Counted from the stretch's first letter, positions 34,216 to 64,000 are shown. The stretch is DNA of 64,000 nt from Candidatus Melainabacteria bacterium (GCA_023250195.1 JAHFBF010000005.1:172025-236024), one strand, 5' to 3'. Numbers and translations: made by a program. The notes: generated by a model not told the origin, from the sequence alone.

Positions 34216-34287
34216 TGGGCTCTACTGGAATCGAACCAGTACTCTCTTCCGTGTGAAGGAAACATCTTACCATTAGACGAAGAGCCC
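34216..34287 (-). tRNA. tRNA-Val (anticodon CAC), 72 nt
   Basis: Hand-folded. Acceptor GGGCUCU/AGAGCCC + A73. D-loop AAUGGUA. Anticodon stem UUUCC/GGAAG with loop UUCACAC. T-arm ACUGG-UUCGAUU-CCAGU. Confidence 0.85.
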
Positions 34288-35027: not shown

Positions 35028-35053
35028 GGTTTAAGTATTGTACACTATTGATT

Positions 35054-35792: not shown

Positions 35793-35863
35793 GGTGGCAT
35801 TTTAATCATAAAGACTGTGATAAATATGATATTTTAGATATTTCTCTGGAAGAGGTTAAGTAA
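35793..35863 (+). repeat. Imperfect direct repeat (53/53 identical, then 14/19) of the last ~71 bp of the VanX-like CDS, including an in-frame stop
   Basis: ggtggcattttaatcataaagactgtgataaatatgatattttagatatttc occurs at 35616-35668 and again at 35793-35845. The tails encode SFEEIK* versus SLEEVK*. Confidence 0.6.
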
Positions 35864-42590: not shown

Positions 42591-45001
42591 AAAAACTGCT
42601 TACAATCTTGCTTTTAATTTCACTTACATTTAGTCAATGGAGTGTAAATGCTAATGGTCCTTTAATAGTAATAAATAATAAAGCAGTTACTTATGGCAGT
42701 AGGCCTCTTGTCTACAGATACGATCAAGGAACACTTGGAAGTCTTTCAAATTCAAGTGCTACTTCATTGATAGCTTCTCTTTTTTCAGAATGGGAAGGAG
42801 TTCAAAGTGCTAATTTAACCTTTCAGCAGGATAATCCCGGTACTCTTAGTGCTGATATAAATTCTACTAACTATACTCCAATATTAGAACCATCTTCACG
42901 ACTTGGTTATACCCCGTTTATTTTTGATACAGATGGTTCAATAGTAAAAGATATTTTAGGGAACGGATCAGAAAATCAGGTTATTGGATTTGCCGGCGCT
43001 ACATTTTTATTTATAGGAGATCCTTATGAAATTGCTGAATCACAGGCACTCTTTAATGGCAGATTTATAAATGGCATAAATAATGGATCTGATGCTGAAC
43101 TTAGTTTAAATACTTTTAAAAAGGCGATAATTCATGAGGTAGGACATGCTGTAGGACTCGATCATTCCCAGATTAATGTGGATGCTCTTGATTCCGGGGT
43201 TACACAGGATGTAAAGAATTCGCCACCTTTAATGTTTCCATACGCTATAAATGAACTTTTTTCAATTATGAGAGATGATGCTTCAGGAGCTTCACTGCTT
43301 TATCCAGATAGTACAGAACTTTCTAACTATGGGACAATTCAAGGAAAAGTTTTTAGAGCAAATGGCGCTACGCCTGTCTTAGGTGCAAATGTAATTGCAA
43401 GAAATGTAAGTAACTCAAGAATTGAAGCAGTGTCATGTGTGTCAGATTATCTTATCGATAATACAGGCTCATTTACTTTGTTTGCAGTGCCTGCGGGAAA
43501 TTATAGAATTGAAATTGAACCGATATCTACTTTGTTTACCGGAGGATCAAGTGTAGGCCCATACTCAGAAACTATAAATGGGCAATCCTTTCTAAATCCT
43601 GTCCCTAAAGGGTTTTACACAGGACCAAATCAATTAATTGTAAGTGATATAAATAGTGCATTAATTATAAATGTTGTTAGTGGACAGACAATTCAGGGCG
43701 TAAATATTATTGCCAAATTAGCTTCAAGTTCGTCTTCAAGTTCAAGCAGCTCATCATCAGGTTCAGGGAGTTCCTCTTCAAGCAGTTCCTCATCTTCATC
43801 TAGTTCAGGAGGCTCTTCTTCTAGCTCCTCATCCAGTTCCAGTAGTTCAAGTTCATCGTCAAGCAGTTCCTCATCTTCATCTAGTTCAGGAGGCTCTTCT
43901 TCTAGCTCCTCATCCAGTTCCAGTAGTTCAAGTTCATCAAGTAGTTCTTCATCCTCGTCTAGTTCCAGCAGCTCCTCATCCAGTAGTTCAAGTTCATCGT
44001 CTAGTTCCAGCGGCTCTTCATCCAGCAGTTCAAGTTCATCATCAAGTTCAAGTAGTTCTTCTTCAGGAACTCCCACACCAGAACCATCTCCCTCGCCAAG
44101 TCCACCTAGTGGCGGCGGTGGGGGTGGTGGCCCAGTATTTGTTCCTTCATCAACTCCTTCTCCAACAGGTAGTTCAGCCAGCTCATCATCTTCAAGTGGT
44201 TCTGGTTCAAACAATGTCATTTTAACCCCAGACTCTTCAAACCCAGCTGTTATTAATACTTCAAACGGTTCGTCATCAGGGGGAAGTATTGGAAATACCA
44301 CTCAATCCGGTGATCTAAATTTCGATATAATTTATTCCCCGCTACTTCCAGAAACAATTTCTTTGCCGTTAATTCCTGATAAGTTACTTGGAAAAATAGG
44401 AATTGCGTATCCAGGATCAAACCCCTCATTTGAAATCAAATTTCCACAGAATAACTTACCATCAAATATTGCTTCAATAGATTTAGAGGATAAAGATGGA
44501 ATAATTTTCCCAAATATTCTTTTTAACGTAACAAAGATTTTTAATAGCACAGATAAGTTAATCTTAAGCCTAACAATCCCTGACAACGTTTCATCCGGAA
44601 TTTTGAAAGTGAGAATAAATTTTGCTGATAGCAGAAGATTAACAGGTCTAGTTGCAGTTGTTGACTTCCTCAATTTAATAAAAGGTTTAAATGGGAAAGG
44701 AAAAACTGTAGGTAAACCACAGATCACCCAAATTACAACCCTTAAAAAAAGGAGAGACATTGTGCTGAATGTTCTTGGAAATAATTTTGTTGGAAGTGAA
44801 AATGTAAACTCAAATACTACAATTACTCTTTTCCCGGCTGATTTAAATGTTTCAATTAAGCTTCAATCGGTCTCTAAAAATGGTAAAAATCTTGTATTGA
44901 AATTAAACCTGTTGGATGGTTTTGAAAAATCAGCACGAAGTGTAATTTCCATTTCTACACCAAGAGGAATTGTTTCTGTACCGCTTGTGATAAAGAAGTA
45001 A
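42587..45001 (+). CDS. Secreted zinc metalloprotease (metzincin, HExxHxxGxxH) with a long poly-Ser/Gly linker and a C-terminal beta-rich domain
   Basis: Signal peptide. HEVGHAVGLDHS. ~130-residue Ser run encoded by 81-bp tandem DNA repeats. PTPEPSPSPSPPSGGGGGGG spacer. Confidence 0.6.
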   Translation: MKKLLTILLLISLTFSQWSVNANGPLIVINNKAVTYGSRPLVYRYDQGTLGSLSNSSATSLIASLFSEWEGVQSANLTFQQDNPGTLSADINSTNYTPILEPSSRLGYTPFIFDTDGSIVKDILGNGSENQVIGFAGATFLFIGDPYEIAESQALFNGRFINGINNGSDAELSLNTFKKAIIHEVGHAVGLDHSQINVDALDSGVTQDVKNSPPLMFPYAINELFSIMRDDASGASLLYPDSTELSNYGTIQGKVFRANGATPVLGANVIARNVSNSRIEAVSCVSDYLIDNTGSFTLFAVPAGNYRIEIEPISTLFTGGSSVGPYSETINGQSFLNPVPKGFYTGPNQLIVSDINSALIINVVSGQTIQGVNIIAKLASSSSSSSSSSSSGSGSSSSSSSSSSSSSGGSSSSSSSSSSSSSSSSSSSSSSSSSGGSSSSSSSSSSSSSSSSSSSSSSSSSSSSSSSSSSSSSSSGSSSSSSSSSSSSSSSSSGTPTPEPSPSPSPPSGGGGGGGPVFVPSSTPSPTGSSASSSSSSGSGSNNVILTPDSSNPAVINTSNGSSSGGSIGNTTQSGDLNFDIIYSPLLPETISLPLIPDKLLGKIGIAYPGSNPSFEIKFPQNNLPSNIASIDLEDKDGIIFPNILFNVTKIFNSTDKLILSLTIPDNVSSGILKVRINFADSRRLTGLVAVVDFLNLIKGLNGKGKTVGKPQITQITTLKKRRDIVLNVLGNNFVGSENVNSNTTITLFPADLNVSIKLQSVSKNGKNLVLKLNLLDGFEKSARSVISISTPRGIVSVPLVIKK
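43730..44100 (+). repeat. In-frame tandem repeat array (unit ~81 bp) encoding the poly-Ser linker
   Basis: agcagttcctcatcttcatctagttcaggaggctcttcttctagctcctcatccagttccagtagttcaagttcatc is repeated back-to-back (43781-43857 and 43865-43941), with further degenerate copies. Confidence 0.6.
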
Positions 45002-45916: not shown

Positions 45917-46906
45917 ATGAGAAAACAAAATATTAAAATAGCTTGCTTTTTATTTTTTTTAATTTTATTTATACAGGCAAACTGTTTTTCTTTATCTGCA
46001 CAAACCCAGGAAGAATCACTCTACAAACGACTGGGAGGAGTATATAACATAGCAGCGGTTATAGATGATTTTGTTGACAGGCTTCTTTCTGATCCGACAA
46101 TAACTGCAAATAAAAATGTTGTAAGCTCACTCGGAAAAATTACAAAACCGGGACTGAAATACCAGCTTACAGAACTGCTTTGTCAGGCAGCAGGCGGGCC
46201 ACAAAAATACAACGGTCGTTCAATGAAAGAATCTCATCAAGGATTAAATATTACAGAAACAGAGTGGCAGGCTATGGTGAAAGATTTTCTTGCAACACTT
46301 GCAAAATTTAATATTAAAGATCTTGAACAGAATGAATTGCTTGTAATTGTTGGTGGTACAAAAAGTGATATAGTTGTTTCTGCTCCACAGGGGGCTCAAC
46401 CACAAGTGCCTGTATTGCCAGGGACTGTTCCAGTAAATCCAGCTCAGCCACTACCTCAGCTAGCACCAAACCTACCATCAGCAATACCAACACTGCCCAA
46501 TCCGGCAAATGTACCATCAGCAGCACCAGCATTGCCGACACTGCCAAGCCCAGCAAACATACCATCAGCAGTACCAGCAATACCAACATTGCCAAACCCA
46601 GCAAACATACCATCAGTAGTACCGGCATTACCGACTTTACCTTCATTGCCAGATAATGTAGTACCTTCTAAACCTACAACAAAGCCATCTTTACCAGCAG
46701 TGCCGGTTATAACACCGCCTTCTATTGATTTAGTTCGACCCAGATTAGAAATCCCTTCAAATTCTTCAGGTAATATTGCTCCTCAGATACAACCACAGGC
46801 TGAAACAGCGCCGAAGAACGATACACCACAGGATGCTGCTGTTACTGATATCGAGGATGAAGAAGATGAATTACCACCAGAACCAACTTTAGAACCGGCT
46901 AATTAG
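45917..46906 (+). CDS. Truncated haemoglobin (group I 2/2 Hb) domain protein with an N-terminal signal peptide and a C-terminal Pro-rich tandem-repeat tail
   Basis: LYKRLGGVYNIAAVIDDFVDRL...LGGPQKYNGRSMKESHQGLNITETEWQAMVKDF matches the trHb fold. N-terminus MRKQNIKIACFLFFLILFIQANCFSLSA. Tail repeats (PTLPNPANxPSxxPAx) x4. Confidence 0.65.
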   Translation: MRKQNIKIACFLFFLILFIQANCFSLSAQTQEESLYKRLGGVYNIAAVIDDFVDRLLSDPTITANKNVVSSLGKITKPGLKYQLTELLCQAAGGPQKYNGRSMKESHQGLNITETEWQAMVKDFLATLAKFNIKDLEQNELLVIVGGTKSDIVVSAPQGAQPQVPVLPGTVPVNPAQPLPQLAPNLPSAIPTLPNPANVPSAAPALPTLPSPANIPSAVPAIPTLPNPANIPSVVPALPTLPSLPDNVVPSKPTTKPSLPAVPVITPPSIDLVRPRLEIPSNSSGNIAPQIQPQAETAPKNDTPQDAAVTDIEDEEDELPPEPTLEPAN

Positions 46907-51309: not shown

Positions 51310-51658
51310 GAAGTAAACATTAGGTAAGCAAATCTCTCCCTTTTAGATTAATCATAGCTGCTCTATATAATATAATGGATATTAATGGATTTTGATTCTA
51401 CTTTTAACTTTTTAAAAGAAGAGCTGGAGAGAATATTAGAAAATGTTAAGTGATGAAGAAAAAAAGAATTGTTAGAAGATGGACTTAGTTCCTCTCGGAG
51501 AGAGGACTTTAGAGCATGTAAGGATCTTAAGTCAAACATCTTGCTTGATGACTATATCAAGTTCTTGGATGATATTCAAAAAGTTTTTGGACAGTTTGAA
51601 ATTTCTCAGAAGATAACAAAGTGTGATTTAAATCAGCTTTAAAATCTTAGGATTTAGA

Positions 51659-51722
51659 GACAAAGTGAGAACTGAAATAATAGAATACAAAGGCCATTTA
51701 TCCCCTTAGTGCTCTTTCACTT
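51659..51722 (+). repeat. Intergenic repeat family, copy A (degenerate)
   Basis: gacaaagtgagaactgaaataatagaatacaaaggccattta...ccccttagtgctctttcac matches both the 5' block (caaagtgagaac) and the 3' block of copy B. Confidence 0.35.
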
Positions 51723-52121
51723 AGATGATTCTATAGGCAATGAAGAATATTTATGCAGAACTTTTAATAGATTAGCTTCTGAAATTATTCCAATTAGTTT
51801 TCCTTTATCGTCAACTACCGGTAAACAGCCAAACCTGTTAATCATCATTATTTCTATTGCATCTTTTAAGTCAGTGTTTGACTTAACGCAGGTCACCTGT
51901 TCCTGTTTTAACATTGCCGATCTGACTGAAATTTGATCAGGGTTGTGAAAGATAGTTTCAATTATTTCTCTAAGGGTAATTAATCCAACTAACTTTTTAG
52001 TTTGATCCACAATAGGCAGGTTTCTAATTCTTTCTTCTTTCATGAACTTTGAAGCATGCAGAACAGTATCTTCTTCATATAAGAAGTAAGTGTTAGCTTC
52101 CATTACATCTTTAACTTTCAT
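51717..52121 (-). CDS. CBS-domain pair protein
   Basis: Two CBS motifs (VKDVMEANTYF... and ...GIISEANLLK). Confidence 0.7.
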   Translation of the reverse strand: MKVKDVMEANTYFLYEEDTVLHASKFMKEERIRNLPIVDQTKKLVGLITLREIIETIFHNPDQISVRSAMLKQEQVTCVKSNTDLKDAIEIMMINRFGCLPVVDDKGKLIGIISEANLLKVLHKYSSLPIESSK

Positions 52122-52129
52122 ATAGCTTT

Positions 52130-52564
52130 TTAATTAAGACTGCCTGGTTCTATAAACCCGGCTTCTTCTAATGCATCTATTCCTGTCTGTATCAGTTCAA
52201 GGGCCTCATTATTCTTCCCTTTTTTAAGTAAGGCAATTCCTTTTTTAATTCGTTTAGTTGTTATACTTTTTGTTTCTTTATCAAATTCTGTTACTTTCCT
52301 TACTTCTTTTTCCGCACTTTTTAGTATCGTTACTGCTGTTTTGTTTTCACCCTGCTGAATAAGCTCTTTTACATCCTGTAAGTCAAGGATAAGAATTTCA
52401 AGTGGAGATAATTCTTCCTGAGCAAGAACTTTATTTCCTTTGTTTGTATACAAACAATTGCCATTTGTAATAAATGAACCAAATAATACAGCTGAGACTA
52501 AAATAAAAGATAAAAGTTGTTTTGAACAAACCATGATTTTCTCCTTTGAAAGAAATGTTAACAT
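52130..52564 (-). CDS. Hypothetical secreted protein (144 aa)
   Basis: N-terminal hydrophobic signal. Confidence 0.35.
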   Translation of the reverse strand: MLTFLSKEKIMVCSKQLLSFILVSAVLFGSFITNGNCLYTNKGNKVLAQEELSPLEILILDLQDVKELIQQGENKTAVTILKSAEKEVRKVTEFDKETKSITTKRIKKGIALLKKGKNNEALELIQTGIDALEEAGFIEPGSLN

Positions 52565-52683
52565 AAAAACTTCTGTTAGGAAATGAAGCTTGAATCAATT
52601 TTAAGACTGTTAACTATTGGCTTTTAGCTCCAGCCTCTTAGTGCTTTATAAGAAGGGGAGTGTAAAGAGTATATGTTGAATTA

Positions 52684-52950
52684 CTATGCTGCTTTTTTAT
52701 TTTCAGTAATAGAAAAAAAGGTAAGTCCAAAATTTGAATGTGCTGACATTTGAGCACTAATCACCCCAGCTTGGTCATCAAAATATAGTGGACCTCTATC
52801 ACCATTAAACATTCTTAAATCAGAACCTTCATTTGGGATGACTTGTAAAACTATTCCATCTTTTGCATTACCTCTTTGTATAAAATTTTCAACTGTTTCA
52901 GGTGGTACGGGTTTATAAGAATTAGCAGGATTCAGAACTTGGATTCTCAT
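52684..52950 (-). CDS. Hypothetical protein (88 aa)
   Basis: ORF only. Confidence 0.3.
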   Translation of the reverse strand: MRIQVLNPANSYKPVPPETVENFIQRGNAKDGIVLQVIPNEGSDLRMFNGDRGPLYFDDQAGVISAQMSAHSNFGLTFFSITENKKAA

Positions 52951-53182
52951 AATTGTGTTCTCCTTTTTAATTAGTAATATTTTAACTTTTTAAGTTTTAT
53001 ACTACATCATAAAGAAAGAATAATAAGTTGTATCTAACTTACATTCCTCTTACATAAGATTTATACAGATAAGAGTGAATTTAGTATAAGTTAAATTATT
53101 TAAAAATCCTTGTTGCTTAAATACCTAGCAAGAACTAAAATGTATTTAACTAATAGATTACAATTTGTGAGAAGGTTGCATA

Positions 53183-54184
53183 ATGCAAACAAGAAGAGTT
53201 TTCTTATTTAACGGACTAGTTAATTTAGCAACATTTACGGTAAGTGGAAGTTTAGTAATGGCTGGAAAGGAACATATAAAGGAAGAAGTCAAACCCAATG
53301 AAGGACCAGGACAACAAGAGTCAGAAAATCCTGCATTAATACCAAAAAAACATTCTGATAAAGTCAGGTTACCCAGTAATACTGTTAATCATGCTGCTGA
53401 TTTTGCTCTTGGTGGGACACTAGGATTAGTAGTTAAAAAAGTAATTGAAAAAAGTACAAAACTAAACAGAGTAAATAAAGAATTATCATCTATTATAAGC
53501 AAGCTTCAAAAATTAGAAAATAATGACTTGCCTGGTATTGAAAGAACGTTAAAAGAATTTGTTGAAAAAGAAGGCATAAGATATGAAACTCGTAATAGTA
53601 GTAATTCTATAGGGTCAATAGTAAGTTTATTAGATGCTATTTTAATTCACGTTAACTCATATAAGAAAGCAACTCAACCCTATCTTGAAGAATTACAAAA
53701 ATTAAGGATAGCGTTTGCAGGTCCTTTTATTGAACAGCTGCAAAATGTTGGTAATGTGGATGCAGCTACAAGAGAAGCCGCAATTCAAGTTTTAAGAAGT
53801 GATAAATTAATCGAGTATTTAGCAACTACTATTGTTAATGCATTACAAAGCACTGGTGCTGGTAATGGAATAGGTATAAATATTGCTAGCTCTTTAGAAG
53901 GAAAAGATTTACTAAGTAATGATGCAGTCATTGCACTAAAGCAAGTAGTAATAGAAGTTATGAGAAGTAATCAAGTTAGGGAAGCATTAGGCTATTCAAT
54001 TGGTGCTAATATTACCGAATATGATGTGGCAGAAAGGTTAATGGAAACTCTTTTACACAGATATAAAATTAGTTTACAAGATGATGATCCGGATTTAATT
54101 GCATTAAAGAAAGCCATCGCTGAAGCTCTAAAAAAAGAAGATGTGTCTAAGAAATTAGGCGATGCTTATACAGAGCTTAGCTGA
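53183..54184 (+). CDS. Hypothetical protein (333 aa), N-terminal hydrophobic segment, ORFan-like
   Basis: ORF only. Confidence 0.45.
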   Translation: MQTRRVFLFNGLVNLATFTVSGSLVMAGKEHIKEEVKPNEGPGQQESENPALIPKKHSDKVRLPSNTVNHAADFALGGTLGLVVKKVIEKSTKLNRVNKELSSIISKLQKLENNDLPGIERTLKEFVEKEGIRYETRNSSNSIGSIVSLLDAILIHVNSYKKATQPYLEELQKLRIAFAGPFIEQLQNVGNVDAATREAAIQVLRSDKLIEYLATTIVNALQSTGAGNGIGINIASSLEGKDLLSNDAVIALKQVVIEVMRSNQVREALGYSIGANITEYDVAERLMETLLHRYKISLQDDDPDLIALKKAIAEALKKEDVSKKLGDAYTELS

Positions 54185-54217
54185 TACTGGAACAGTAAAA
54201 GTTGAATGGACGTTAGA

Positions 54218-54346
54218 AACAAAGTAAGAGCTAAATTAAGAGAATATAGAGGGCATATTTTTATACTGGATTTGGTTCCTGCTGCGTGATGTACCCCTAA
54301 TGCTCTTTACTATGTCTCACAAGGGAAGCAGTACCAAATTTGTGCA
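54218..54346 (+). repeat. Intergenic repeat family, copy B
   Basis: aaacaaagtaagagctaaattaagagaatatagagggcatatttttatactggatttggttcctgctgcgtgatg...tgctctttactatgtctcacaagggaagcagtaccaaatttgtgc. The embedded peptide frame lacks an ATG in this copy. Confidence 0.5.
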
Positions 54347-54467
54347 TAAGTAACTTGAATCTGATTACTTGAAGATTAATTTTGTAATGGGTTAAAGCAA
54401 GGTTAAAAAAAATTAAGTGAATTTGCCTGTCAAAAAGCTCATCAATAATTCGTTTTATTAGCATAGT

Positions 54468-55292
54468 ATGAAAATTTCAAAAGAAGGATTTCTTGCTCCT
54501 GAACAACTAAAAACAATATATAAAATTTGCCAGAATATTGCTCGCATGTGTGAACAAGGAGATAGGCCTAAATATGCTTTTTATCATAGTATAGAAGCTC
54601 CTGAGGGTGGAGAAATAAATGGATTTCACGGCAGGTCAATTATAAAAGATGTTATACCAAGTTTAATTCAAAGAAAACAAGCTGGGAAAGTAAAAATTAT
54701 TGATTTAGGTGCTGGTGCTTGCCTATATACAGCACAAATTAGAGAAGAATTTGGTGATAAAGTGGATGTGTATAGCACAGGGTTGAGAAAAAAAACAGCT
54801 AAAAAAGAAAGAGAAAAAATCCAGGCTGGAGAATCTCTCGATTTTGAAGGAATTAGATACATTATTCCTCACGAAGGACGTGTCTTCTGGACACCATCTA
54901 AAAACTTACATCCGAATGACTTGAAGTGGAGATCTGTTTTAGAATTATCAAAGCATCCTGAATTTGACTTAATCCTCGATACTAATGGTGAATTAAGATC
55001 TGCAGTAAATAATCTTGACTATCTACAAAAATACTTAGGCGCCGTGATCACAAAATTAAATCCTAAAGGGGTTGCAAGTCTTGCAGGCGTTAACTTAAAG
55101 CATGATAATTTATTCAGGCAATTATCAGAAGAACTCCCTGGGGAAAAACCCGAACAAGATTTGACCAATGAAGCGAAGCTTGAATTGTTAAATAGATTTC
55201 TTTCAAAATTGCAACAAAGAGAAAATAATTCTTTTAATTTTGAAACAACACTACACAATGAGTTTATTCAATTAACTATACTTAAGAATTGA
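54468..55292 (+). CDS. Hypothetical protein (274 aa); possible Rossmann/SAM-MTase-like glycine motif
   Basis: IIDLGAGACLY is weakly MTase motif-I-like. Confidence 0.4.
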   Translation: MKISKEGFLAPEQLKTIYKICQNIARMCEQGDRPKYAFYHSIEAPEGGEINGFHGRSIIKDVIPSLIQRKQAGKVKIIDLGAGACLYTAQIREEFGDKVDVYSTGLRKKTAKKEREKIQAGESLDFEGIRYIIPHEGRVFWTPSKNLHPNDLKWRSVLELSKHPEFDLILDTNGELRSAVNNLDYLQKYLGAVITKLNPKGVASLAGVNLKHDNLFRQLSEELPGEKPEQDLTNEAKLELLNRFLSKLQQRENNSFNFETTLHNEFIQLTILKN

Positions 55293-55332
55293 TTTCCAAC
55301 ATTTAGTTTCTACATCTACGTAAAATAATTTT

Positions 55333-55445
55333 CGGGACTCAGGTACAAAGTGAGAACCAAATTAATGGAGCATAAAGGGCATATTTACATATCGGACTTA
55401 GTTCTGGCTGTGTGATTTATTACAGGGACAGATTTGCTTTATCAA
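55333..55445 (+). repeat. Intergenic repeat family, copy C
   Basis: cgggactcaggtacaaagtgagaaccaaattaATGgagcataaagggcatatttacatatcggacttagttctggctgtgTGAtttattacagggacagatttgctttatca. Embedded 16-codon ORF MEHKGHIYISDLVLAV (55365-55415). Confidence 0.55.
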
Positions 55446-55494
55446 GGTGTATGTTGTGAAAAATTTTAATTGAAGATGCTAAGATATATGCATG

Positions 55495-55508
55495 TGCGAA
55501 TATTCGCA
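55495..55508. promoter_or_regulatory. Perfect 14-bp palindrome TGCGAATATTCGCA, 19 bp upstream of the ArsR start. Candidate ArsR/SmtB operator.
   Basis: Seen directly; RBS aaaggtgg follows. ArsR-family repressors typically bind imperfect 12-2-12 palindromes overlapping their own promoter. Confidence 0.4.
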
Positions 55509-55526
55509 TAAAGATAAAGGTGGTTT

Positions 55527-55913
55527 ATGAAAAACCTTAGAGAGTTTAAAGCAGACTTTTTTAAAGTACTTGCTAGCCCTATTAGAATTCAAATAATAGA
55601 TGAGTTACGTGATGGCGAATTAACTGTCAATGAATTAAAGGAAAAGTTAGAAATCGAAGCTCCGAATGTATCTCAACAACTTGCAATACTCAGAAATAGT
55701 AACATCGTAAAAACCAGAAAAGAAGGAAATAATATCTATTATTCCATAAGACATAACATTATATTCAAAATGTTGGATCAGACAAAAAAAATATTCAATG
55801 AGCATTTACTTGATGTTCAAAGTTTGCTAAAAAAAATATCTATAAATTTAATTCTATTTGTTTTGAATCTTGAGAATCTAATGAATTTTGGAGTTGATAT
55901 AGCTTTAATTTAA
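55527..55913 (+). CDS. ArsR/SmtB-family transcriptional regulator
   Basis: Winged-HTH signature FKVLASPIRIQIIDELRDGELTVNELKEKLEIEAPNVSQQLAILRNSNIVKTRKEGNNIYYS. Confidence 0.75.
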   Translation: MKNLREFKADFFKVLASPIRIQIIDELRDGELTVNELKEKLEIEAPNVSQQLAILRNSNIVKTRKEGNNIYYSIRHNIIFKMLDQTKKIFNEHLLDVQSLLKKISINLILFVLNLENLMNFGVDIALI

Positions 55914-55962
55914 CGATAGAAACTTTAATGGGATTTTTTATATTAAGGAGGCTTGGCTAAAA

Positions 55963-56559
55963 ATGGATAAGAAAGATGGTTTGTTAAAAATTGATGTTTT
56001 ATCAGTTGGATTATTTGGACTTGCAGTAGGTGCTCTAACATTAGGCTTTGTCCAAATGGGAGTAATTCCGCACAATGATGATTTAGCCATATCAATTATT
56101 TGTCTTATTTTTGGTGGAATTGTTCAAGTACTTGCTGGCATGGTTGACGTAAAATATCACGATCAACTTGGTGGTACTGCACTTACAATGTATGGTTTTT
56201 ATTGGACAACAATGTTTATAGTTAAGATTTTAGGCTTAGTACAGGGTTTTCATTGGGATAATATTCTTTTTCTCCCAATAGTCACAATTTATGCAACATT
56301 TTCTGCTGTGATGATTTATCTTACAGGACATAAGTCATTTGCTTTAATGCTACTCCATATCTTTATTACAGCAGTTTTTATAATAGATATTCTTGTCAAA
56401 CTAAATTATCCACTTGAGTATTATGCAGGAGTTGATCATGCAATAATTGGAGTAATTGCTCTTTATCATGCAATGATAACACTTGTGAATAAATACACCG
56501 GCAAGGCTGGATATCTATTAGGTAAGCCTCCATTTAAGTTTAAAGAAAGTCATAAATAA
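55963..56559 (+). CDS. GPR1/FUN34/YaaH (AceTr, SatP-like) family channel
   Basis: 6 TM helices. FGGIVQVLAGMVDVKYHDQLGGTALTMYGFYWTT aligns to the SatP motif [34 protein letters not shown]. Confidence 0.7.
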   Translation: MDKKDGLLKIDVLSVGLFGLAVGALTLGFVQMGVIPHNDDLAISIICLIFGGIVQVLAGMVDVKYHDQLGGTALTMYGFYWTTMFIVKILGLVQGFHWDNILFLPIVTIYATFSAVMIYLTGHKSFALMLLHIFITAVFIIDILVKLNYPLEYYAGVDHAIIGVIALYHAMITLVNKYTGKAGYLLGKPPFKFKESHK

Positions 56560-58523
56560 TGATGGGTAACCTTTTGCTCTTTAAGTTCTCATTATTCCTT
56601 TTTATTACAGGGGCATTTTTTTCACTTATATTGGGATTTTATTCAAAGAAATTCAGTACATATGTTTCAGGAATTTTTGCTGCTGTTTCTGCATCGCTTA
56701 GCTTAGTAAGTTCAATTAATATTTTACTATATCAAAACAATTTCACTATCAAGCTACCAATAAACATTCCACTGCTGACAGCAAATATTGGAATGGATCC
56801 ATTCTCAGCATTTTTTATCTTTCTTATTTCACTCATTGCAATTCCTGTATCAATTTATTCAATTGGTTATATGAATTCAGAACCTTCAGATACACCGGTG
56901 CATATCTTAGGATTTTTATACAATTTGTTTTTATTATCAATGATTCTTGTTGTAAGTGCAAAGGATGCATTGCTATTTCTAATCTTTTGGGAATCCATGA
57001 CATTAATATCTTATGGATTAATTGTATCTAATACTTCTAGTGATGAATCACGATCTGCCGGTTTTATTTATTTGTTAATGACTCATATTGGCTCTGCGTT
57101 TTTGCTTTTTTTGTTTTTAATAATGGCAAATTATTCAGGAAGTTTTGCATTTGAATCATTTCATGATATCTATAAAACAATACCTGATAGTTTAAATCTT
57201 TTATTATTTGTTTTTGCTTTAATTGGTTTTGGAACTAAAGCAGGTTTAGTTCCTTTACACATATGGCTTCCAGAAGCTCATCCGGCAGCTCCCAGTCATG
57301 TATCTGCTCTTATGTCCGGAGTCATGATTAAAACAGCTATCTATGGAATACTGCGTATAACCTTTGATTTTCTGAATCCTGCATCATATTGGTGGGGAAT
57401 TGGATTACTTTTAATAGCAGTAACTACTGCATTAGTTGGCATTATTTATGCTTCTCAGGAAAACGATATAAAAAGACTTCTTGCATATAGCAGCATTGAA
57501 AATATTGGCATAATTTTTATTCCTATTAGTGCAGCAATTATTTTTTATAGCTTAAAGCTCTATGAGCTTGCAGGGATTTCAGTTGTTATAAGTTTATTTC
57601 ATACCTTAAACCATTCTATTTTTAAAGGATTACTTTTTATGGGTGCTGGTTCAGTAATTTCTGTAACACATACAAGAAACCTTATAAAACTTGGCGGGCT
57701 AATTAAAAAAATGCCGCAAACATCGTTATTCTTTCTAATAGGAGTATTAGCAGTATGTGCGTTTCCTCCACTTAACGGCTTTGCAAGTGAATGGCTTATA
57801 TTCCAAAATTTACTTTCATTATTCAAGACTTCTTCCAGTACCATAAAAATTGTAGCTATAATCTCTGCATCACTGTTAGGTTTAACAGGTGCTATATGTG
57901 CTGCAACTTTTTTAAAAGCATTCTCTGGTATATTCCTGGCATTTCCTAGAACACATCAGGCAGAATATGCTCATGAAGCCTCTTTATCCATGACTTTTGG
58001 CTTGTTTACATCTGCAGCATTATGCTTATTAATTGGGGTTTTGCCTTTATTTGTCATTTTGCCAATCTGCACTGCGGTTTCAACACTAATGAAATCAAGT
58101 AGTGTAACTCCTGAGATGTTTTCTGATGGAAATACCTTACATATAAGCAATATAATCCCTGGATATTATTCGCCTGTATTACTAACAATTCTTCTTATAG
58201 TATTTTCTCTTTTTGCACTTATCCTTCCCAAATTAATTGGCAGTAAAACTACCACGAGAAAGGATGAAACCTGGAGTTGTGGGATTACACCTAGAGCTGA
58301 GTTTGAATATACTCCCAGTGGCTATGCACAACCTTTAGAAGTTATTTTTTCAGGATTACATGTTCCTGCAGATTTTTATTATAAGTGGATTTATCTTCCT
58401 ATTTATAATGCTTTGCACAGGTTTTCTCATAAATTAAAACCAATTCAATCAGGAGTTGTGCAAATTTACCTGACTTATATCTTTGTTGCTTTAGTGGCTT
58501 GCATATTGTGGGTGAGTTTATGA
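56559..58523 (+). CDS. NuoL/HyfB/MnhA-like proton-translocating (antiporter-type) membrane subunit
   Basis: 654 aa, ~16 TM helices. Proton_antipo_M motifs (WLPEAHPAAPSHVSALMSGVMIKTAIYG). Confidence 0.8.
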   Translation: MMGNLLLFKFSLFLFITGAFFSLILGFYSKKFSTYVSGIFAAVSASLSLVSSINILLYQNNFTIKLPINIPLLTANIGMDPFSAFFIFLISLIAIPVSIYSIGYMNSEPSDTPVHILGFLYNLFLLSMILVVSAKDALLFLIFWESMTLISYGLIVSNTSSDESRSAGFIYLLMTHIGSAFLLFLFLIMANYSGSFAFESFHDIYKTIPDSLNLLLFVFALIGFGTKAGLVPLHIWLPEAHPAAPSHVSALMSGVMIKTAIYGILRITFDFLNPASYWWGIGLLLIAVTTALVGIIYASQENDIKRLLAYSSIENIGIIFIPISAAIIFYSLKLYELAGISVVISLFHTLNHSIFKGLLFMGAGSVISVTHTRNLIKLGGLIKKMPQTSLFFLIGVLAVCAFPPLNGFASEWLIFQNLLSLFKTSSSTIKIVAIISASLLGLTGAICAATFLKAFSGIFLAFPRTHQAEYAHEASLSMTFGLFTSAALCLLIGVLPLFVILPICTAVSTLMKSSSVTPEMFSDGNTLHISNIIPGYYSPVLLTILLIVFSLFALILPKLIGSKTTTRKDETWSCGITPRAEFEYTPSGYAQPLEVIFSGLHVPADFYYKWIYLPIYNALHRFSHKLKPIQSGVVQIYLTYIFVALVACILWVSL

Positions 58524-59491
58524 ACGAAGAATTGAAAATTATAATCATAATTTTTTGTCATTTAGCTATATTGCTCTTGCTTTCTCCACTTGTAAATTCC
58601 ATAATAAAAAAAACTAAAGCATTGCTGCAGGGAAGAAAAGGAATTCCACTGGCTCAAGGCTATTACGATTTAATTAAATATTTTCATAAGGAAACTGTTA
58701 TTTCAAACCAAACATCATGGATATTTCTTATAACACCGGTGATTCTTTTTTCTTCAATTCTTCTTGCAGGTTTATTTGTTCCACTGTTTTCTGAATTTGG
58801 AAGCATAAAGATTTTAGGAGGAATTATAGTTTTTGTTTATCTGCTGGGACTTGGCAGATTTTTTATGTCTCTTGCTGCTATGGAGCCTGGAAGTGGTTTT
58901 TGTGGAATGGCAAGCAGCAGAGAAATGATGCTTTCAGTTTTAATAGAGCCTGTCATGCTTCTTTCTCTTATTGTTTTATCCTTACTAGCCGACTCAACAC
59001 AAATTTTTACGATAATAAGTTCAATTGCAAGACATAATTTAACTTTGCCATCTACAGGCTATGTGCTTGCAATAATAGCTTTATTTATTATTTCAATAGC
59101 AGAAATAGGAAGGATTCCATTTGATAATCAAGAAACTCACTATGAACTTACTATGATACATGAAGGGATGCTTTTAGAGTATTCCGGCAAACTACTTGGA
59201 TTAATGATCTGGTCTGGCTGGTTAAAACAATTAATAATAATATCTTTAATCAGTAATCTAATTTTTCCATGGGGAATTACAAATACGTTTACTTTAAGCA
59301 GTATTTTAATTGGGTTCATATTTTATATTCTTAAGGTTTTTATATTTTCAATCTTTATTGCTTTAATCGAAACCATTATTGCAAAAGTCAGATTGTTTAG
59401 AGTAAAAGATATCCTGGTTGCTTCTTTTGTAATTTCAGTTTTAGCGTTAATTTTAATTATTCAGGAATCAGGAAAGGGTTCCTTACTATGA
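58520..59491 (+). CDS. NuoH/HycD/HyfC-like membrane subunit. Start taken at the Met overlapping the upstream stop (ATGA).
   Basis: ~8 TM helices. Conserved acidic loop FDNQETHYELTMIHEGMLLEYSG matches NuoH/HycD signatures (E...EGES-like). Confidence 0.7.
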   Translation: MNEELKIIIIIFCHLAILLLLSPLVNSIIKKTKALLQGRKGIPLAQGYYDLIKYFHKETVISNQTSWIFLITPVILFSSILLAGLFVPLFSEFGSIKILGGIIVFVYLLGLGRFFMSLAAMEPGSGFCGMASSREMMLSVLIEPVMLLSLIVLSLLADSTQIFTIISSIARHNLTLPSTGYVLAIIALFIISIAEIGRIPFDNQETHYELTMIHEGMLLEYSGKLLGLMIWSGWLKQLIIISLISNLIFPWGITNTFTLSSILIGFIFYILKVFIFSIFIALIETIIAKVRLFRVKDILVASFVISVLALILIIQESGKGSLL

Positions 59492-60159
59492 CAAACCTGC
59501 TAATTAAAGAACTAACACCTTCATTATTGAGTTACTCTACGGTTATTTTACTGTTAATGAGTATCTTAATTGCTGGCAGCAACAGATTACAATCCATAGT
59601 TAAATTTTATGCATTTCAGTCATTATGCTTAGTAGTAATCACACTGATTGTTGGATTTTCAACTAGTAATTCCGAGACTATTCGAATAGCAACAATTACA
59701 TTTATAGGCAAGTGCCTAATCATACCGTTAGCCTTAAATTTTGTTATAAATAAAACTCAGGTTCATAAAGAAGTTGATCCTATAATAAGCCCACCAACAA
59801 CGGTACTTATTGTCTGTATATTAATTGCGCTTGTATATGGTTTAACTTCAACACCAAATTTTGCAAAAATAGCTTATTCCTTAGGATTGTTTGATACGGC
59901 TATATCCATAATATTAATTGGATTATTAATAATGATAAGCAGAAGAAAAGCACTTACACAAATTGTTGGATTATATGTAATGGAAAATGGAATTTTTGCA
60001 CTTACAGTTGACACAGTGTTTGGAATGCCATTTGTTGTGGAGATGGGGATTTCTCTCGACTTATTTATTGGCGTACTGATAATGGGTATCTGGGTTCTTA
60101 GAATCAAACAATCGTTTGACTCGATAGATGTAAGTAAATTAAGCAAATTAAAAGGATAA
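59488..60159 (+). CDS. HyfE-like small membrane subunit of group-4 hydrogenase/Mrp-type modules
   Basis: 223 aa, 6-7 TM helices. Position between the HycD-like and HyfF-like genes, as in hyf operons. Confidence 0.45.
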   Translation: MTNLLIKELTPSLLSYSTVILLLMSILIAGSNRLQSIVKFYAFQSLCLVVITLIVGFSTSNSETIRIATITFIGKCLIIPLALNFVINKTQVHKEVDPIISPPTTVLIVCILIALVYGLTSTPNFAKIAYSLGLFDTAISIILIGLLIMISRRKALTQIVGLYVMENGIFALTVDTVFGMPFVVEMGISLDLFIGVLIMGIWVLRIKQSFDSIDVSKLSKLKG

Positions 60160-60163
60160 TATT

Positions 60164-61660
60164 ATGGATATAACTTTATTTTTTTTAATTCCAATTATCA
60201 CGGCAATACTTTGCTTAATACCAAATAACATTAGATGGTTAGCTCCCATTCAAATAGCCGGAACATCGTTTTTATTCCTAGTTGTAATTAGATTATTAAA
60301 TAATATCCTTCAATACAAGGTAATCAAAGCATTTAATAACCTGATTTATATAGATGCTTTTAGCGGGTTATTGATTTTATTAATTTCAACAGTTGGCTTG
60401 CTTGTTTCTTTATATTCAGCAGGGTACATGACTAAAAGCCCTGAAGGAAAAACTGTTTCCACCTGGAAATTGAAAAGATATTACTTCTTATTAAATATTT
60501 TTATACTTACCATGTTAACTGTAGTCACTGCAAATAACATTGGACTGGTATGGGTTGGAATTGAAATAACTACACTGGTCTCAGCATTCTTAGTAGGATA
60601 TTATAATAAGCAAACCAGTATTGAAGCTGCATGGAAGTACATCATACTCTGCACTGTAGGCATTGCATTTGCAATGATAGGAATTATTTTATGTTACTAC
60701 GGGGCTATTCATTCTGGAGGCATTGAGTCACTAAGTCTAAACTGGGATTATTTACTTTCAATAGGAAATAAGTTTGATCCAAGCATAATGAAACTAGCAT
60801 TTGTATTTATATTAATTGGCTATGGAACAAAAGCAGGTCTTGCTCCCATGCATTCATGGCTGCCTGATGCACACAGCGAAGCACCCACTCCTGTCAGTGC
60901 ATTACTTTCCGGTGTTCTTTTAAAATGCGGCATCTATAGCATTATTAGATTTTCTATTTTAGCTAATGAATCTCTAGGTGCAGCATTTACAAATCAGATG
61001 CTGCTTTTCTTTGGAATCCTTTCAATTGGATTATCAGTTCCATTTATAATTACCCAACACCAGATTAAACGTTTACTGGCATATAGCAGTCTTGAACATA
61101 TAGGAATAATTGTTACTGGTTTTGGGATAGGAAATCCAATATCAATCTTTGGTGCACTATTTCATATGCTTAACCATGCAATGGTGAAAACTTTAATGTT
61201 TTTTTCTGCCGGCAATCTTGCATTAAAATTTCAGACAAAAGATATGAGTAAAATCAAATGTGCGGTTAATATAATGCCCTTTACCGGAACAGTTCTTTTA
61301 ATTGGAGGGCTTGCTTTAGCTGGTTCTCCACCATTTTCAGTTTTTTTAAGTGAGTTTTATATTATCAAAGCTGGAATATTTGAAAAGCACTGGGTTATAA
61401 GTACATTATTTCTACTTTTCTTAGTTATTATTTTTGGGGCATTAATGCATCACATCATGGGCGTCACTCTTGGAAATAATTTAAACAATACAACGGAAGA
61501 AAAAGCTAATATACAAAAAGGAGAAGTAAGCAAATCAGGGATTGTAGCATCATTGATTCCTTTACTTATCATATGTTTATTGGGTGTTTGGATGCCACAA
61601 TCATTATTTAAACTGCTCAATGCATCTGTAGAAATTATTACAGGAAAGGGAATCTTATGA
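60164..61660 (+). CDS. NuoN/NuoM/HyfF-like proton-translocating membrane subunit
   Basis: 498 aa. WLPDAHSEAPTPVSALLSGVLLKCGIYS antiporter-module motif. Confidence 0.8.
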   Translation: MDITLFFLIPIITAILCLIPNNIRWLAPIQIAGTSFLFLVVIRLLNNILQYKVIKAFNNLIYIDAFSGLLILLISTVGLLVSLYSAGYMTKSPEGKTVSTWKLKRYYFLLNIFILTMLTVVTANNIGLVWVGIEITTLVSAFLVGYYNKQTSIEAAWKYIILCTVGIAFAMIGIILCYYGAIHSGGIESLSLNWDYLLSIGNKFDPSIMKLAFVFILIGYGTKAGLAPMHSWLPDAHSEAPTPVSALLSGVLLKCGIYSIIRFSILANESLGAAFTNQMLLFFGILSIGLSVPFIITQHQIKRLLAYSSLEHIGIIVTGFGIGNPISIFGALFHMLNHAMVKTLMFFSAGNLALKFQTKDMSKIKCAVNIMPFTGTVLLIGGLALAGSPPFSVFLSEFYIIKAGIFEKHWVISTLFLLFLVIIFGALMHHIMGVTLGNNLNNTTEEKANIQKGEVSKSGIVASLIPLLIICLLGVWMPQSLFKLLNASVEIITGKGIL

Positions 61661-63258
61661 ACCTGACTAATGAAGATTTAACATCTGCAAGATTGATGAG
61701 TTTACTAAAAGATTATCGCTCTGAAGCAAACACTATTAATCCTAATCATCTGATTTTTCTTATTGAAAAAGAATCTTTACAAAATGCAATAGAAACTTTG
61801 TATAAAGAAAATGATATTAAAACATTATTTCTTACCATGGTTGCAACAGATGAAAGACAATTAAATGGAAAATATAAATTGCATTTAATTTTTCTTATCC
61901 TTAATACAGATATTTTAGTAACATTTAAAATTAATTTAGATCAGACAAAACCTTCTTATCCTGCTATTAGCAAGTTCCTTCCTGCTGTGGAATGGTTCGA
62001 ACGTGAGATTCATGACATGTTTGGAATCGTTGCAGAAGGAATAGATTTGCCGCCGCTAGTACTTCATCGGGATTTTCCTCACGGGAAATATTTTCCTATG
62101 CGGAAAGATTTTGAGATAAATAAAGAAGTTACAATTTCAGAAGTACCACATCAATTTACACAACCACATGCAGAAGGAATGCATCAGGTAGCAGTCGGAC
62201 CGATACATGCCGGGATAATTGAACCTGGACATTTAAGATTCTGCACAATCGGTGAACAAATACTTGAATTTGATGCCCAGCTTTTTTACACACATAAAGG
62301 AATTGAAAAAATTGTAGAAGATAAAACTATAGAAGAAGGATTGGTATTAGCAGAGCATACATGTGGAATGTGTTCATATTCTCATTCTACGGCTTATTGC
62401 CAGGCAATTGAAAGTATTGGTCAAATCAATATTCCTAAAAGAGCTTTATATATAAGAACTATTTGTTTAGAACTGGAAAGATTAAGCAATCATTTATCAG
62501 ATCTGTCGGCAATCTGTTCTGCCGGTGGATTTGCTATTGCTTCAATGCCCGCCGCTAAGTTTAGAGAAAAAATTATGCAATTAATTTTTAAGCTTGCAGA
62601 ACACAGATTCTTTAGAGGATTAAATGCTATAGGTGGATTAAGCAAAGATATTAATGATGGCGACTTTGAGTTTCTGAAAAAGAATCTCCACGCCTTAAAA
62701 AAAGAATTTCACTCGTTGGAGGAAATGATAATTGGTTCAGATACGCTTCTTGATCGCCTTGAAACTACCGGGGAATTGAATTTCACGCAGGCAAAAAATA
62801 TTGGTTTGGTGGGTCCAGCAGCAAGAGCTTCTGGAATTGATATTGATTTAAGGAGAGATTTTCGCTATGCAGCTTATCAAGACTTTATCCTGCAATTCCA
62901 TATTGAAACAGAAGGAGACGCTTTGGCAAGAACAAAAATCAGAATTAAAGAACTTTATGAGACATTAAATTTCATCCCGAAAATTATTGATCAACTCCCT
63001 TCAGGAAGAGTTAAAGAAGAAATGCCTGAACTGCTTCCATTTCAACCTGGAATTGGAATAATAGAGTCTGCCAAAGGATCCCTTATACACTGGCTAATGT
63101 TAGATAATAAAAAGAAAATATTCAGATGGCATGTGAGAAGTGCATCATATATGAATTGGCGGGGTGTAGTGCAAGCAACAAAGGGAAACAATATTGTTCC
63201 TGATGCTCCACTTGTTAATAAGAGTTTCAATCTTTGTTATGCATGTGTTGACAGATAG
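61657..63258 (+). CDS. Group-4 [NiFe]-hydrogenase large subunit fused to an N-terminal NuoC-like domain (HycE/HyfG-type)
   Basis: NuoC-like PAISKFLPAVEWFEREIHDMFGI. L1 motif CGMCSYSH (CxxCxxxH). C-terminal L2 motif NLCYACVDR (CxxCxxR) at the very end. Confidence 0.8.
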   Translation: MNLTNEDLTSARLMSLLKDYRSEANTINPNHLIFLIEKESLQNAIETLYKENDIKTLFLTMVATDERQLNGKYKLHLIFLILNTDILVTFKINLDQTKPSYPAISKFLPAVEWFEREIHDMFGIVAEGIDLPPLVLHRDFPHGKYFPMRKDFEINKEVTISEVPHQFTQPHAEGMHQVAVGPIHAGIIEPGHLRFCTIGEQILEFDAQLFYTHKGIEKIVEDKTIEEGLVLAEHTCGMCSYSHSTAYCQAIESIGQINIPKRALYIRTICLELERLSNHLSDLSAICSAGGFAIASMPAAKFREKIMQLIFKLAEHRFFRGLNAIGGLSKDINDGDFEFLKKNLHALKKEFHSLEEMIIGSDTLLDRLETTGELNFTQAKNIGLVGPAARASGIDIDLRRDFRYAAYQDFILQFHIETEGDALARTKIRIKELYETLNFIPKIIDQLPSGRVKEEMPELLPFQPGIGIIESAKGSLIHWLMLDNKKKIFRWHVRSASYMNWRGVVQATKGNNIVPDAPLVNKSFNLCYACVDR

Positions 63259-63269
63259 AAAGGAACATC

Positions 63270-63815
63270 GTGTTAAATATTTTAAAATATTGTAGTACTA
63301 AAAATAAAGAAGTAAATGATCTTTTATTACCTATGATTAATGCATCAAATATTGAAGATGTAAAAATTGAATTGTCTAAAATTGAACTTCTGGATAAAAA
63401 TGTTAGGAAAGCATTGAGCAGATCTATACTTATACGTCATTTAGATACAGGTTCCTGTAATGCAGAAGAAGCTGAACTCCTTGCGCTATCCAATCCCATA
63501 TATGATGTAACCAGATTTGGTATTGATTTTACTGCTTCACCAAGGCATGCAGATGTTTTAACAGTAAGTGGACCTGTAACCAGACATCTTAAAATTGCAA
63601 TGGAAAAAACATATAATGCAATGCCTTCTCCAAAAATTGTAATAGCTCTTGGAGATGGTGCTTGTAATGGTTCTATTTATGAAAATACATATGCTTGTTT
63701 AGGAAAAATAGATAATTTCTTGCCAGTAAATATTTATATTCCTGGTAACCCACCTACGCCAATTCAAATTCTTAAAGGATTACTTCTCTGCAAGTATTTA
63801 TTGAACAAAAAATAG
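63270..63815 (+). CDS. NuoB/HycG-like hydrogenase small subunit, short (181 aa), with only 2 of the 4 canonical [4Fe-4S] Cys ligands
   Basis: FGIDFTASPRHADVLTVSGP aligns to NuoB RFG..RASPRQ.D. GSCNAEE versus canonical SCCxVEM. GACNGS versus GACANSGG. IPGNPP versus PGCPP. Confidence 0.7.
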   Translation: MLNILKYCSTKNKEVNDLLLPMINASNIEDVKIELSKIELLDKNVRKALSRSILIRHLDTGSCNAEEAELLALSNPIYDVTRFGIDFTASPRHADVLTVSGPVTRHLKIAMEKTYNAMPSPKIVIALGDGACNGSIYENTYACLGKIDNFLPVNIYIPGNPPTPIQILKGLLLCKYLLNKK

Positions 63816-63819
63816 AAAT

Positions 63820-63959
63820 CGGACCTCAGGTACAAAGTGAGAACTAAATTAATGGAGCATAAAGGTCATATTTACATACCGGATTTAGCCCCTGTTGCAT
63901 GATTCACCACCTAGTCAGTCCTCTTCACTGTATCTCACAGGGACAGATTTGCTTTATCA
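63820..63959 (+). repeat. Intergenic repeat family, copy D (longest)
   Basis: cggacctcaggtacaaagtgagaactaaattaATGgagcataaaggtcatatttacataccggatttagcccctgttgcaTGAttcaccacctagtcagtcctcttcactgtatctcacagggacagatttgctttatca. Embedded ORF MEHKGHIYIPDLAPVA (63852-63902). Confidence 0.55.
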
Positions 63960-64000
63960 TTGGCTGAGAAGCTTTTTACAGTACAATCTTTGCAATGAGG

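Follow-up and report, generated by a model that had tools for sequence, protein, structure and literature searches.

An intergenic repeat with a conserved small frame as a probable attachment-site arm of gene modules stacked at tRNA-Pro(GGG) in Melainabacteria

The intergenic repeat described here occurs in four copies in a 64,000-nt stretch of DNA from a Candidatus Melainabacteria bacterium (GCA_023250195.1 JAHFBF010000005.1:172025-236024; hereafter the window), and again in related genomes. A first-pass annotation, made from the sequence alone, had drawn attention to the repeat and had listed several possible roles for it, including an RNA-level function, a terminator, transposon-like dispersal, and a boundary between cassettes. 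On the basis of the computational analysis reported here, we favor, with somewhat better than even confidence, the view that the element is the attachment-site arm of integrative modules stacked head-to-tail at the 3' end of tRNA-Pro(GGG). Loci are given by number only where they need to be told apart; L020 is the window's own contig, which was recovered via the last gene of the window.

Results

Junctions with tRNA-Pro

A tRNA-Pro(GGG) gene lies at the 3' side of the array, in the opposite orientation, in L020, L005, L012, L010/L016, L023, and L007 (ARAGORN, Rfam). Its position in the window's own contig is as follows.

L020 20380-20455, opposite to the array: tRNA-Pro, about 9.6 kb past the window end (ARAGORN, Rfam)

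The tRNA ends in ...CGGTCCGA, and the reverse complement of this end, TCGGACC, is identical to the first seven bases of the element. The common core reads TCGG[AG]CC, with its G/A variation at the position of an acceptor-stem G-U pair. Several junctions place the tRNA and the element behind the same kind of module end. The end of a module carrying an AAA_14 gene (...GATAAACG; right end ...GGTTAAGATAAACG) is joined in L010 to TCGGGC-TGGCGGG, the reverse complement of the tRNA. The sequence that follows this right end is TCGGGC-TGGCGGGATTTGAACC, the tRNA, in L010, and TCGGGC-CTCAGGTACAAAG, the element (TCGGGC-CTCAGG), in both L020 and L012. Likewise, a GNAT gene in L023 ends in TAA-AAA-TCGGACC and leads directly into tRNA-Pro, and a hydrogenase gene in the window ends in TAG-AAA-TCGGACC (stop codon at 63813-63815) and leads into copy D, the last of the four copies, A to D. 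In L001, a 77-aa open reading frame (ORF) that resembles DUF2442 genes elsewhere ends in TAA-AAA-TCGGACC and is followed by the element. In addition, a 53-nt partial tRNA-Pro (positions 24-76, 96% identical) occupies an element's slot in L005, directly past a stop codon, and degenerate T-loop remnants in the tRNA orientation are present upstream of several copies. These junctions show that one and the same module end can be joined either to the tRNA 3' end or to the edge of the element, the two being interchangeable.

The body of the element itself is not tRNA-like. We considered whether the element could be a decayed partial tRNA-Pro, and set this aside because the collinear similarity (the core, ACCCC, and TAGTGCTCT[AC]) is marginal.

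One of the tRNA remnants has a further feature. The degenerate T-loop remnant that precedes the L020 element at 17512 contains a perfect TTGACA-16-TATAAT promoter-like site (17401-17428, +), which overlaps a decayed partial tRNA-Pro fragment at the AAA_14 module end. A truncated 3' tail of HicB comes next, in the absence of any HicB gene at this place.

Independent assortment of the two flanks

The 120-nt flanks of all copies were compared between loci. Only the downstream flank was common to 21 inter-genome copy pairs, and only the upstream flank to about 50, in most of which it carried a HicB 3' tail and a 30-nt spacer; apart from near-identical assemblies of one locus, no pair had both flanks in common. 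From one genome to another, the two flanks of the element assort independently. Its 3' length class (described below) agrees in the pairs that share a downstream flank, but not in those that share an upstream flank, and the element body goes with the module that lies 3' of it. Moreover, L020 and L021, which are 99% identical, are collinear as far as ...ACGTCGGGCCTCA, after which they carry different element variants and different cargo. Because the length class follows the downstream flank, and because of the break between L020 and L021, we place the exchange at or within the first ten bases of the element, with the element body tied to its 3' module. Around copies B and C no strain variation was seen, as all contexts were identical. 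Among the roles suggested in the first-pass annotation, it is the cassette boundary that the assorting flanks, the interchangeable junctions, and the L020/L021 break favor.

Copies in the window

A 38-nt degenerate pattern of the 5' block has four matches in the window, all on the + strand (51660, 54219, 55345, and 63832), compared with none in 100 dinucleotide-preserving shuffles and a chance expectation of 0. Repeat finding recovered the same families, and the four copies align over 110-150 nt. The four same-orientation copies reported earlier are hereby confirmed, and placement with a hidden Markov model (HMM) moved their coordinates by only a few bases.

51651-51722, +: copy A; pattern match at 51660; nhmmer match 51651-51702, model positions 5-55, 25 bits
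54206-54346, +: copy B; HMM match 54208-54338, 108 bits; long-form, diverged
55332-55445, +: copy C; HMM 99.5 bits; long-form, mid-block deleted; core TCGGGAC at 55332-55338
63819-63961, +: copy D; HMM 140 bits; complete long-form; core TCGGACC at 63819-63825

The element is 90-150 nt long and is laid out as the core, the 5' block, and a 27-codon frame, with or without a further 3' block of ~55 nt. In copy D the frame occupies 63819-63899, with an internal ATG at 63852 and the stop codon at 63900-63902, and is followed by the mid-block and the 3' block, ...CTCACAGGGACAGATTTGCTTTATCAT. The corresponding frame of copy C runs from 55332 to 55412 (internal ATG at 55365, stop codon at 55413-55415). 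In copy B the core reads ATGGACG as a result of mutation, so that the 27-codon ORF of this copy has an ATG of its own (MDVRNKVRAKLREYRGHIFILDLVPAA); the stop codon is at 54287-54289. Copy A, which is farthest from the tRNA, is the most degenerate; it is internally deleted and keeps the 5' block and a mid-block remnant, CCCCTTAGTGCTCTTTCACT, to 51722, having lost most of the peptide frame. The long-form copies that lie closer to the tRNA than copy D have HMM scores of 132.5, 134.7, and 147.9 bits. Each copy in the window starts shortly past an upstream + strand stop codon, as had been noted, at a distance of 1-40 nt, and the alignment of the copies bears out both the 3' block and its variant in B and A.

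Three details of the first-pass annotation had to be revised, one of which, on synonymous changes, is taken up below with the small frame. What had been read as a 16-aa ORF is an open frame of 27 codons, which extends from the first base of the element to a position-conserved stop. The direct repeat CGGAC..AG, described at both ends of the 5' block, comprises two unrelated things, the first being the edge of the proposed recombination core. The second unit (CCN GAY TTR GC) is most likely a coincidence, because it sits in the codon-constrained part of the element and varies at wobble positions.

No copy was found in positions 1-51000 of the window with either the 38-nt pattern or the HMM. A 12-nt match, GGACCTCAGGTA, at 33301 was rejected as a further copy, since it falls within a gene of 430 aa and does not exceed chance level. 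The only tRNA genes that ARAGORN detected in the window are tRNA-Ala and tRNA-Val, neither of them in the copies.

Distribution in other genomes

With an HMM built from full-length copies, we found 48 copies in 20 non-redundant Melainabacteria loci. In all ten multi-copy loci the copies lie on one strand, with a start-to-start spacing of 0.64-8.5 kb. The copies fall into two length classes: 23 reach the 3' block, whereas another 21 end with the stop codon of the small frame or shortly past it. Their pairwise identity is 75-98% over 90-150 nt. In L020 the 10 kb that follow the window contain another six copies, also on the + strand, so that its array comprises 10 copies or more over 22 kb. When one genome per species was scanned with an exact pattern, only two assemblies, L001 and L002, both of Melainabacteria, contained the element; a looser, codon-degenerate pattern detected it on 17 metagenome contigs. 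Arrays are present in the samples ERZ27276474 and ERZ27280021. Viral contigs gave 0 matches in two pattern scans, and plasmids and phages gave no BLAST match to the element. The dispersal check proposed in the first-pass annotation, a search for further copies, has therefore yielded many, but in the same type of locus of related genomes. The hosts of the arrays are a clade of low-GC Melainabacteria from groundwater.

The element and its peptide have a remote relative (VYKVRTAICEYQGYIYIPDI..) at L037 1652-1739, on a contig of visibly higher G+C content, where it is fused in frame to an apparent methylase-fragment C-terminus, ..LVYRLYGL. This suggests that the family extends beyond the low-GC Melainabacteria.

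The small reading frame

Nine copies in L020 were retrieved by protein look-up, and hence are unbiased by the DNA pattern. In these, 26-27 codons can be read from the element's first base before a stop is reached, always at the same position, with TGA in eight copies and TAA in one; across the wider set the position of the stop is kept with TGA, TAA, or TAG. The ratio of nonsynonymous to synonymous variation (pN/pS) is 0.32 in the nine unbiased copies, in contrast to 1.15 and 1.34 in the other two frames, and 0.18 over 39 unique copies, a set that is partly biased by copy selection. On the reverse strand all three frames contain stops in most copies. GGN and CCN codons occur with all four third bases, leucine codons switch from TTA/TTG to CTG and arginine codons from AGA to CGA, and the variation across copies is codon-periodic rather than helix-periodic. 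These results overturn the earlier statement that substitutions are not biased towards synonymous changes. The 27-codon frame is under constraint at the peptide level.

The peptide reads ..VRTKLxE[YH][KR]GHI[YF]IPDLA[PA]AA, with MEYKGHIYIPDLAPAA alongside the 27-residue form. An ATG is present in only about 60% of the unique copies, being replaced by AGA, AAA, or AGG throughout the ..TKLREYRGHIF.. subfamily; in several copies the open frame contains none of the start codons ATG, GTG, and TTG, and no obvious ribosome-binding site was seen for the small frame. As a working guess, the frame may be translated in some copies (16 aa from the ATG, or 27 aa in copy B) and be a decaying relic in others; alternatively, the constraint may be inherited from a source outside those found here.

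A word-indexed search of 5.8 billion proteins for the peptide returned only four tiny ORFs, and 12 matches, all of 35-66 aa, came from an exhaustive profile search against 1.84 billion representatives. As the matches were only to tiny ORFs (≤66 aa), we rejected the possibility that the peptide is the C-terminus of a real protein or part of a split gene. A resemblance to AbrB/SpoVT-like N-termini (KGxIxIP) was likewise discarded, there being no Pfam or PDB match even at E ≤ 10, as was an origin from a tmRNA fragment, which the tag-like end of the peptide (..APAA) might suggest, since neither ARAGORN nor Rfam gave a tmRNA signal. Readthrough from the upstream gene was also considered. In L020 912-19395 (window 54181 onward), all five genes just upstream of elements are in frame with the 27-codon frame, versus 3 of 14 upstream genes at other loci; because extra in-frame stops intervene, and given the count elsewhere, the agreement is probably due to chance.

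A subfamily from several genomes carries an insert, always at the same place in the 5' block, that forms a GC-rich double hairpin of 41-50 nt (e.g., CCGCTCAGCTACGCTGAGCGAGCCTCGCCCTGAAAGGGCGG). The insert breaks the 27-codon frame in one subfamily. Its sites are listed below.

L001 7655-7700, -
L006, two copies
L015
L019
L021 12450-12495
L023 7400-7455 and 9545-9590
L005 12165-12210
L036 3955-3995

The stems of the insert show compensatory changes (CGCCC/GGGCG versus CGCTC/GAGCG). In L036 the same type of insert stands beside a tRNA-Arg, within a flank of ~90 nt that is found again ahead of the L001 element copy at 6976.

Modules and cargo

The cargo of the three modules that lie between the window copies is given below.

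51723-54205, mixed strands: cargo of module A; CBS-domain gene (-), two small genes (-), and a 333-aa gene (+) (ORFs and Pfam)
54347-55331: cargo of module B; a single 274-aa gene with no Pfam match
55446-63818, +: cargo of module C; ArsR-type regulator, GPR1/FUN34/YaaH-family membrane protein, and a six-gene membrane-bound [NiFe] hydrogenase operon (Pfam)

As noted earlier, copies B and C bracket a single gene, and C and D bracket the hydrogenase module. Most modules are 0.6-2.7 kb long and lack an integrase, and the cargo downstream of the elements is found on either strand. Across the arrays it includes the toxin-antitoxin pairs HicA/HicB, RelE/ParE, RHH with PemK, DUF4160 with DUF2442, and DUF2283 with DUF4258; a type I restriction-modification system accompanied by a SMODS nucleotidyltransferase, an Mrr nuclease, and a MORC-like ATPase; and GNAT acetyltransferases, AAA_14/DUF4143 ATPases, and an ECF sigma/anti-sigma pair. 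Such cargo is typical of genomic islands and of the flexible genome.

Candidate recombinases

All fetched DNA was screened with phmmer, using as seeds one real integrase and, as a second one, an Escherichia coli XerD sequence. This screen yielded two genes only.

Window 22869-23654, -: Xer-like tyrosine recombinase, 262 aa; Phage_int_SAM_1 and a weak Phage_integrase match
L002 4325-5428: tyrosine recombinase, 367 aa (PF00589), in an element-headed module

The Xer-like gene is the sole recombinase in the window and lies about 28 kb upstream of the array; that it is involved in the array would be pure conjecture. The L002 module that carries the 367-aa integrase also encodes a helix-turn-helix regulator, an ImmA/IrrE-like peptidase, and an SNF2 helicase. 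One homologue of this integrase lies in L027-29, in a 12.5-kb island between two tRNA-Asp genes, and another beside a tRNA-Arg; the family is common in Melainabacteria, and was never seen on contigs with large arrays. Integrases of the right kind, targeting tRNA genes, therefore exist in the group, and one of them resides in an element-headed module. The enzyme that moves the integrase-less modules is proposed below to be a tyrosine recombinase.

Discussion

A model for the arrays

We propose that each module comprises the core of 6-7 bp, the body of the element, and a cargo of one to several genes, the last of which usually stops 1-40 nt short of the next core. In a circular form, a module may recombine through its core either with the 3' end of the tRNA or with another core, the strands being exchanged within the common core by a tyrosine recombinase that is mostly supplied in trans. 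New modules would enter beside the tRNA, and older ones would be pushed outward. Such an order of entry would explain why decay is greatest in the copies farthest from the tRNA, A and then B and C.

Several observations weigh against this model. The core common to the tRNA and the element is only 6-7 nt long, and when the whole element is compared with the reverse complement of tRNA-Pro, 5-85 of 500 shuffles reach its score. No tRNA end was seen within 6.8 kb in the L001/L013 array. There is no recombinase gene in the 22-kb array of L020 or beside the tRNA in any locus, and the L002 integrase lies 4 kb 3' of its element, with no link to tRNA-Pro within the 8 kb examined of the 13-kb contig. 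Neither circular intermediates nor empty sites were observed. The crossover point has been bracketed rather than mapped, as only a single strain-level polymorphism is available. Finally, codon-periodic conservation is not expected of an attachment-site arm, and the model does not explain it.

Other explanations

It is possible, if rather unlikely, that the arrays represent an independent integron-like capture system. Small integrase-less cassettes would then be collected one by one at the 3' end of tRNA-Pro by a recombinase encoded elsewhere, and the double-stranded arm of 90-150 bp, used in place of a folded attC, would encode a peptide of 16-27 residues with a role of its own, e.g., in expression coupling or in the control of recombination.

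The small frame itself could be the primary selected unit, a tiny mobile gene of 16-27 codons whose peptide or translation serves the module, e.g., as a leader or coupling ORF, and its location at junctions would then be secondary. The low pN/pS of both copy sets, the kept position of the stop, and the synonymous switches between codon families of leucine (TTA to CTG) and arginine (AGA to CGA) all point in this direction, as do the short-form copies that end right past the stop and the existence of more distant relatives of the peptide. However, the ATG has been lost in the KLREYRGHIF subfamily, several copies lack any start codon, a ribosome-binding site is not obvious, and the downstream cargo may be on either strand. 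The GC-rich insert breaks the frame in one subfamily, the peptide has no Pfam or PDB match, and the core common to the tRNA is left unexplained. For these reasons we regard a mini-gene of this kind as unlikely to be the main explanation.

Less probable again, in our judgment, is that the repeats are passive and that the modules are shuffled by ordinary homologous recombination, with no site-specific system involved. The identity between copies would suffice for RecA-dependent exchange, and no recombinase is present in or beside the arrays. However, the six to seven common bases cannot join a module end to the tRNA by homologous exchange, and the breakpoints are located at the sharp 5' edge rather than within the repeat. 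The strict co-orientation of the copies and their anchoring at the tRNA in several species also speak against passive repeats.

The remaining readings, which include RNA, terminator, miniature inverted-repeat transposable element (MITE), and strict attC functions, are rejected because each fails a defining test. An integron, or an integrase-less cluster of attC sites recombined as a folded single strand by an IntI-type integrase, is very improbable despite the same-orientation array that separates small, often promoterless, toxin-antitoxin-rich cassettes whose genes end at the repeat edge: the R and L boxes (RYYYAAC/GTTRRRY) are absent from the consensus, no hairpin folds beyond the level of shuffles or shows compensatory pairs, the repeat travels with its downstream module, which is the reverse of attC behavior, the anchor is a tRNA rather than intI/attI, and no integrase other than the Xer-like gene occurs in the 64 kb of the window and a further 10 kb.

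Equally hard to credit is a MITE or another non-autonomous transposon with a preference for sites just past stop codons. The copies are short, multicopy, intergenic, and close to stops, but they have no terminal inverted repeats (2-3 of 20 positions match in 16 of 18 long-form copies, and 4 and 8 in two divergent ones) and no target-site duplications (the longest word common to both flanks is 1-5 nt). They are co-oriented, have modular flanks, are missing from the first 51 kb, and are confined to one tRNA-linked island, so that the MITE-type dispersal suggested earlier is not upheld.

A 3' untranslated region (3'-UTR) element, a terminator, or a small RNA would account for the position directly 3' of + strand genes and for the conserved sequence, but we consider any such RNA-level role to be just as improbable. 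None of ten terminator-like sites in L020 lies inside a copy, and the suggestion of a terminator or 3'-UTR element is not supported. In agreement with the first-pass annotation, the element matches no known family in Rfam at gathering or E ≤ 10 thresholds, with only tRNAs returned. The proposed RNA-level function failed the folding and covariation checks on both strands. The element folds no better than dinucleotide shuffles (z -0.65 to +1.9, both strands), and the RNAalifold consensus reaches -7.65 kcal/mol on the + strand and -11.8 kcal/mol on the - strand, without compensatory pairs. In the 23-pair consensus hairpin of the - strand, 95.5% of cells are paired versus 96.4% in partner shuffles, with no covariation and with a stability like that of the shuffles. 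The codon-periodic variation is also at odds with a role in RNA.

Comparison with known systems

The closest described system is that of the tycheposon islands of Prochlorococcus. Tycheposons and other tyrosine-recombinase elements form additive islands at tRNA genes, with tRNA-Pro among the seven named anchors; as integration recurs at one site, the older elements are displaced outward and partial-tRNA repeats of ~40 nt are left behind (Hackl et al., 10.1101/2020.12.28.424599). As in those islands, the arrays described here are tRNA-adjacent, with scattered attachment repeats, adaptive or defensive cargo, and many remnants without an integrase. In contrast to them, only 6-7 nt are shared with the tRNA, the repeat is a 90-150 nt non-tRNA arm with a 27-codon frame, and the modules are mostly 0.6-2.7 kb, without an integrase, and in Melainabacteria.

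Integron arrays, e.g., the Vibrio cholerae superintegron, are long and co-oriented, with a repeat of ~120-150 bp between toxin-antitoxin-rich, recombinase-less cassettes whose genes end at the repeat. The Melainabacteria arrays share with them a co-oriented, conserved repeat between compact, toxin-antitoxin-rich cassettes, but differ in having no R/L boxes or hairpin, a crossover at the 5' edge, a tRNA target instead of attI, and no IntI found. Integrative mobile elements exploiting Xer (IMEX), such as the CTX/TLC/RS1 arrays, are integrase-less and are integrated in tandem at dif by the host-encoded recombinase XerCD. The modules described here are also integrase-less and in tandem at one chromosomal site, and would likewise depend on a recombinase acting in trans; their target, however, is a tRNA end, and the element is unlike dif. 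Short ORFs within recombination sites or repeats are known from ORF-11 in attI1 and from the peptide-coding Rickettsia palindromic elements. We found no sequence or structural relation to either of these, and the frame described here shows purifying selection without a conserved start.

Cassette arrays that collect toxin-antitoxin, defense, and metabolic genes are known mainly from integrons, and tRNA-anchored additive islands mainly with partial-tRNA repeats and resident integrases. The locus described here combines integron-like cassettes, including a whole hydrogenase operon, with stacking at a tRNA end, divided by a conserved non-tRNA repeat. If the proposed mechanism is true, it would provide a handle on gene exchange among uncultured Melainabacteria, and the HMM of the element would serve as a simple tag for the flexible gene pool in metagenomes.

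Other observations in the window

Three further features of the window were recorded. The last 69 nt of a 239-aa ORF (34967-35686) are repeated 177 nt downstream with 94% identity (35793-35861 versus 35616-35684). This ORF was judged to be VanX-like from its sequence alone (..WWHFNHKDCDKYD..); the repeat is near the tRNA-Val gene (34216-34287, -), and looks like a gene 3' end displaced by a small insertion. A coding tandem repeat at 43727-44050 gives a secreted-looking protein of 804 aa a long poly-serine tract, and proline-rich repeats of the PALPTLP type occur at 46440-46635 in a globin-domain-like protein (45917-46906). Both of these coding repeats are unrelated to the element.

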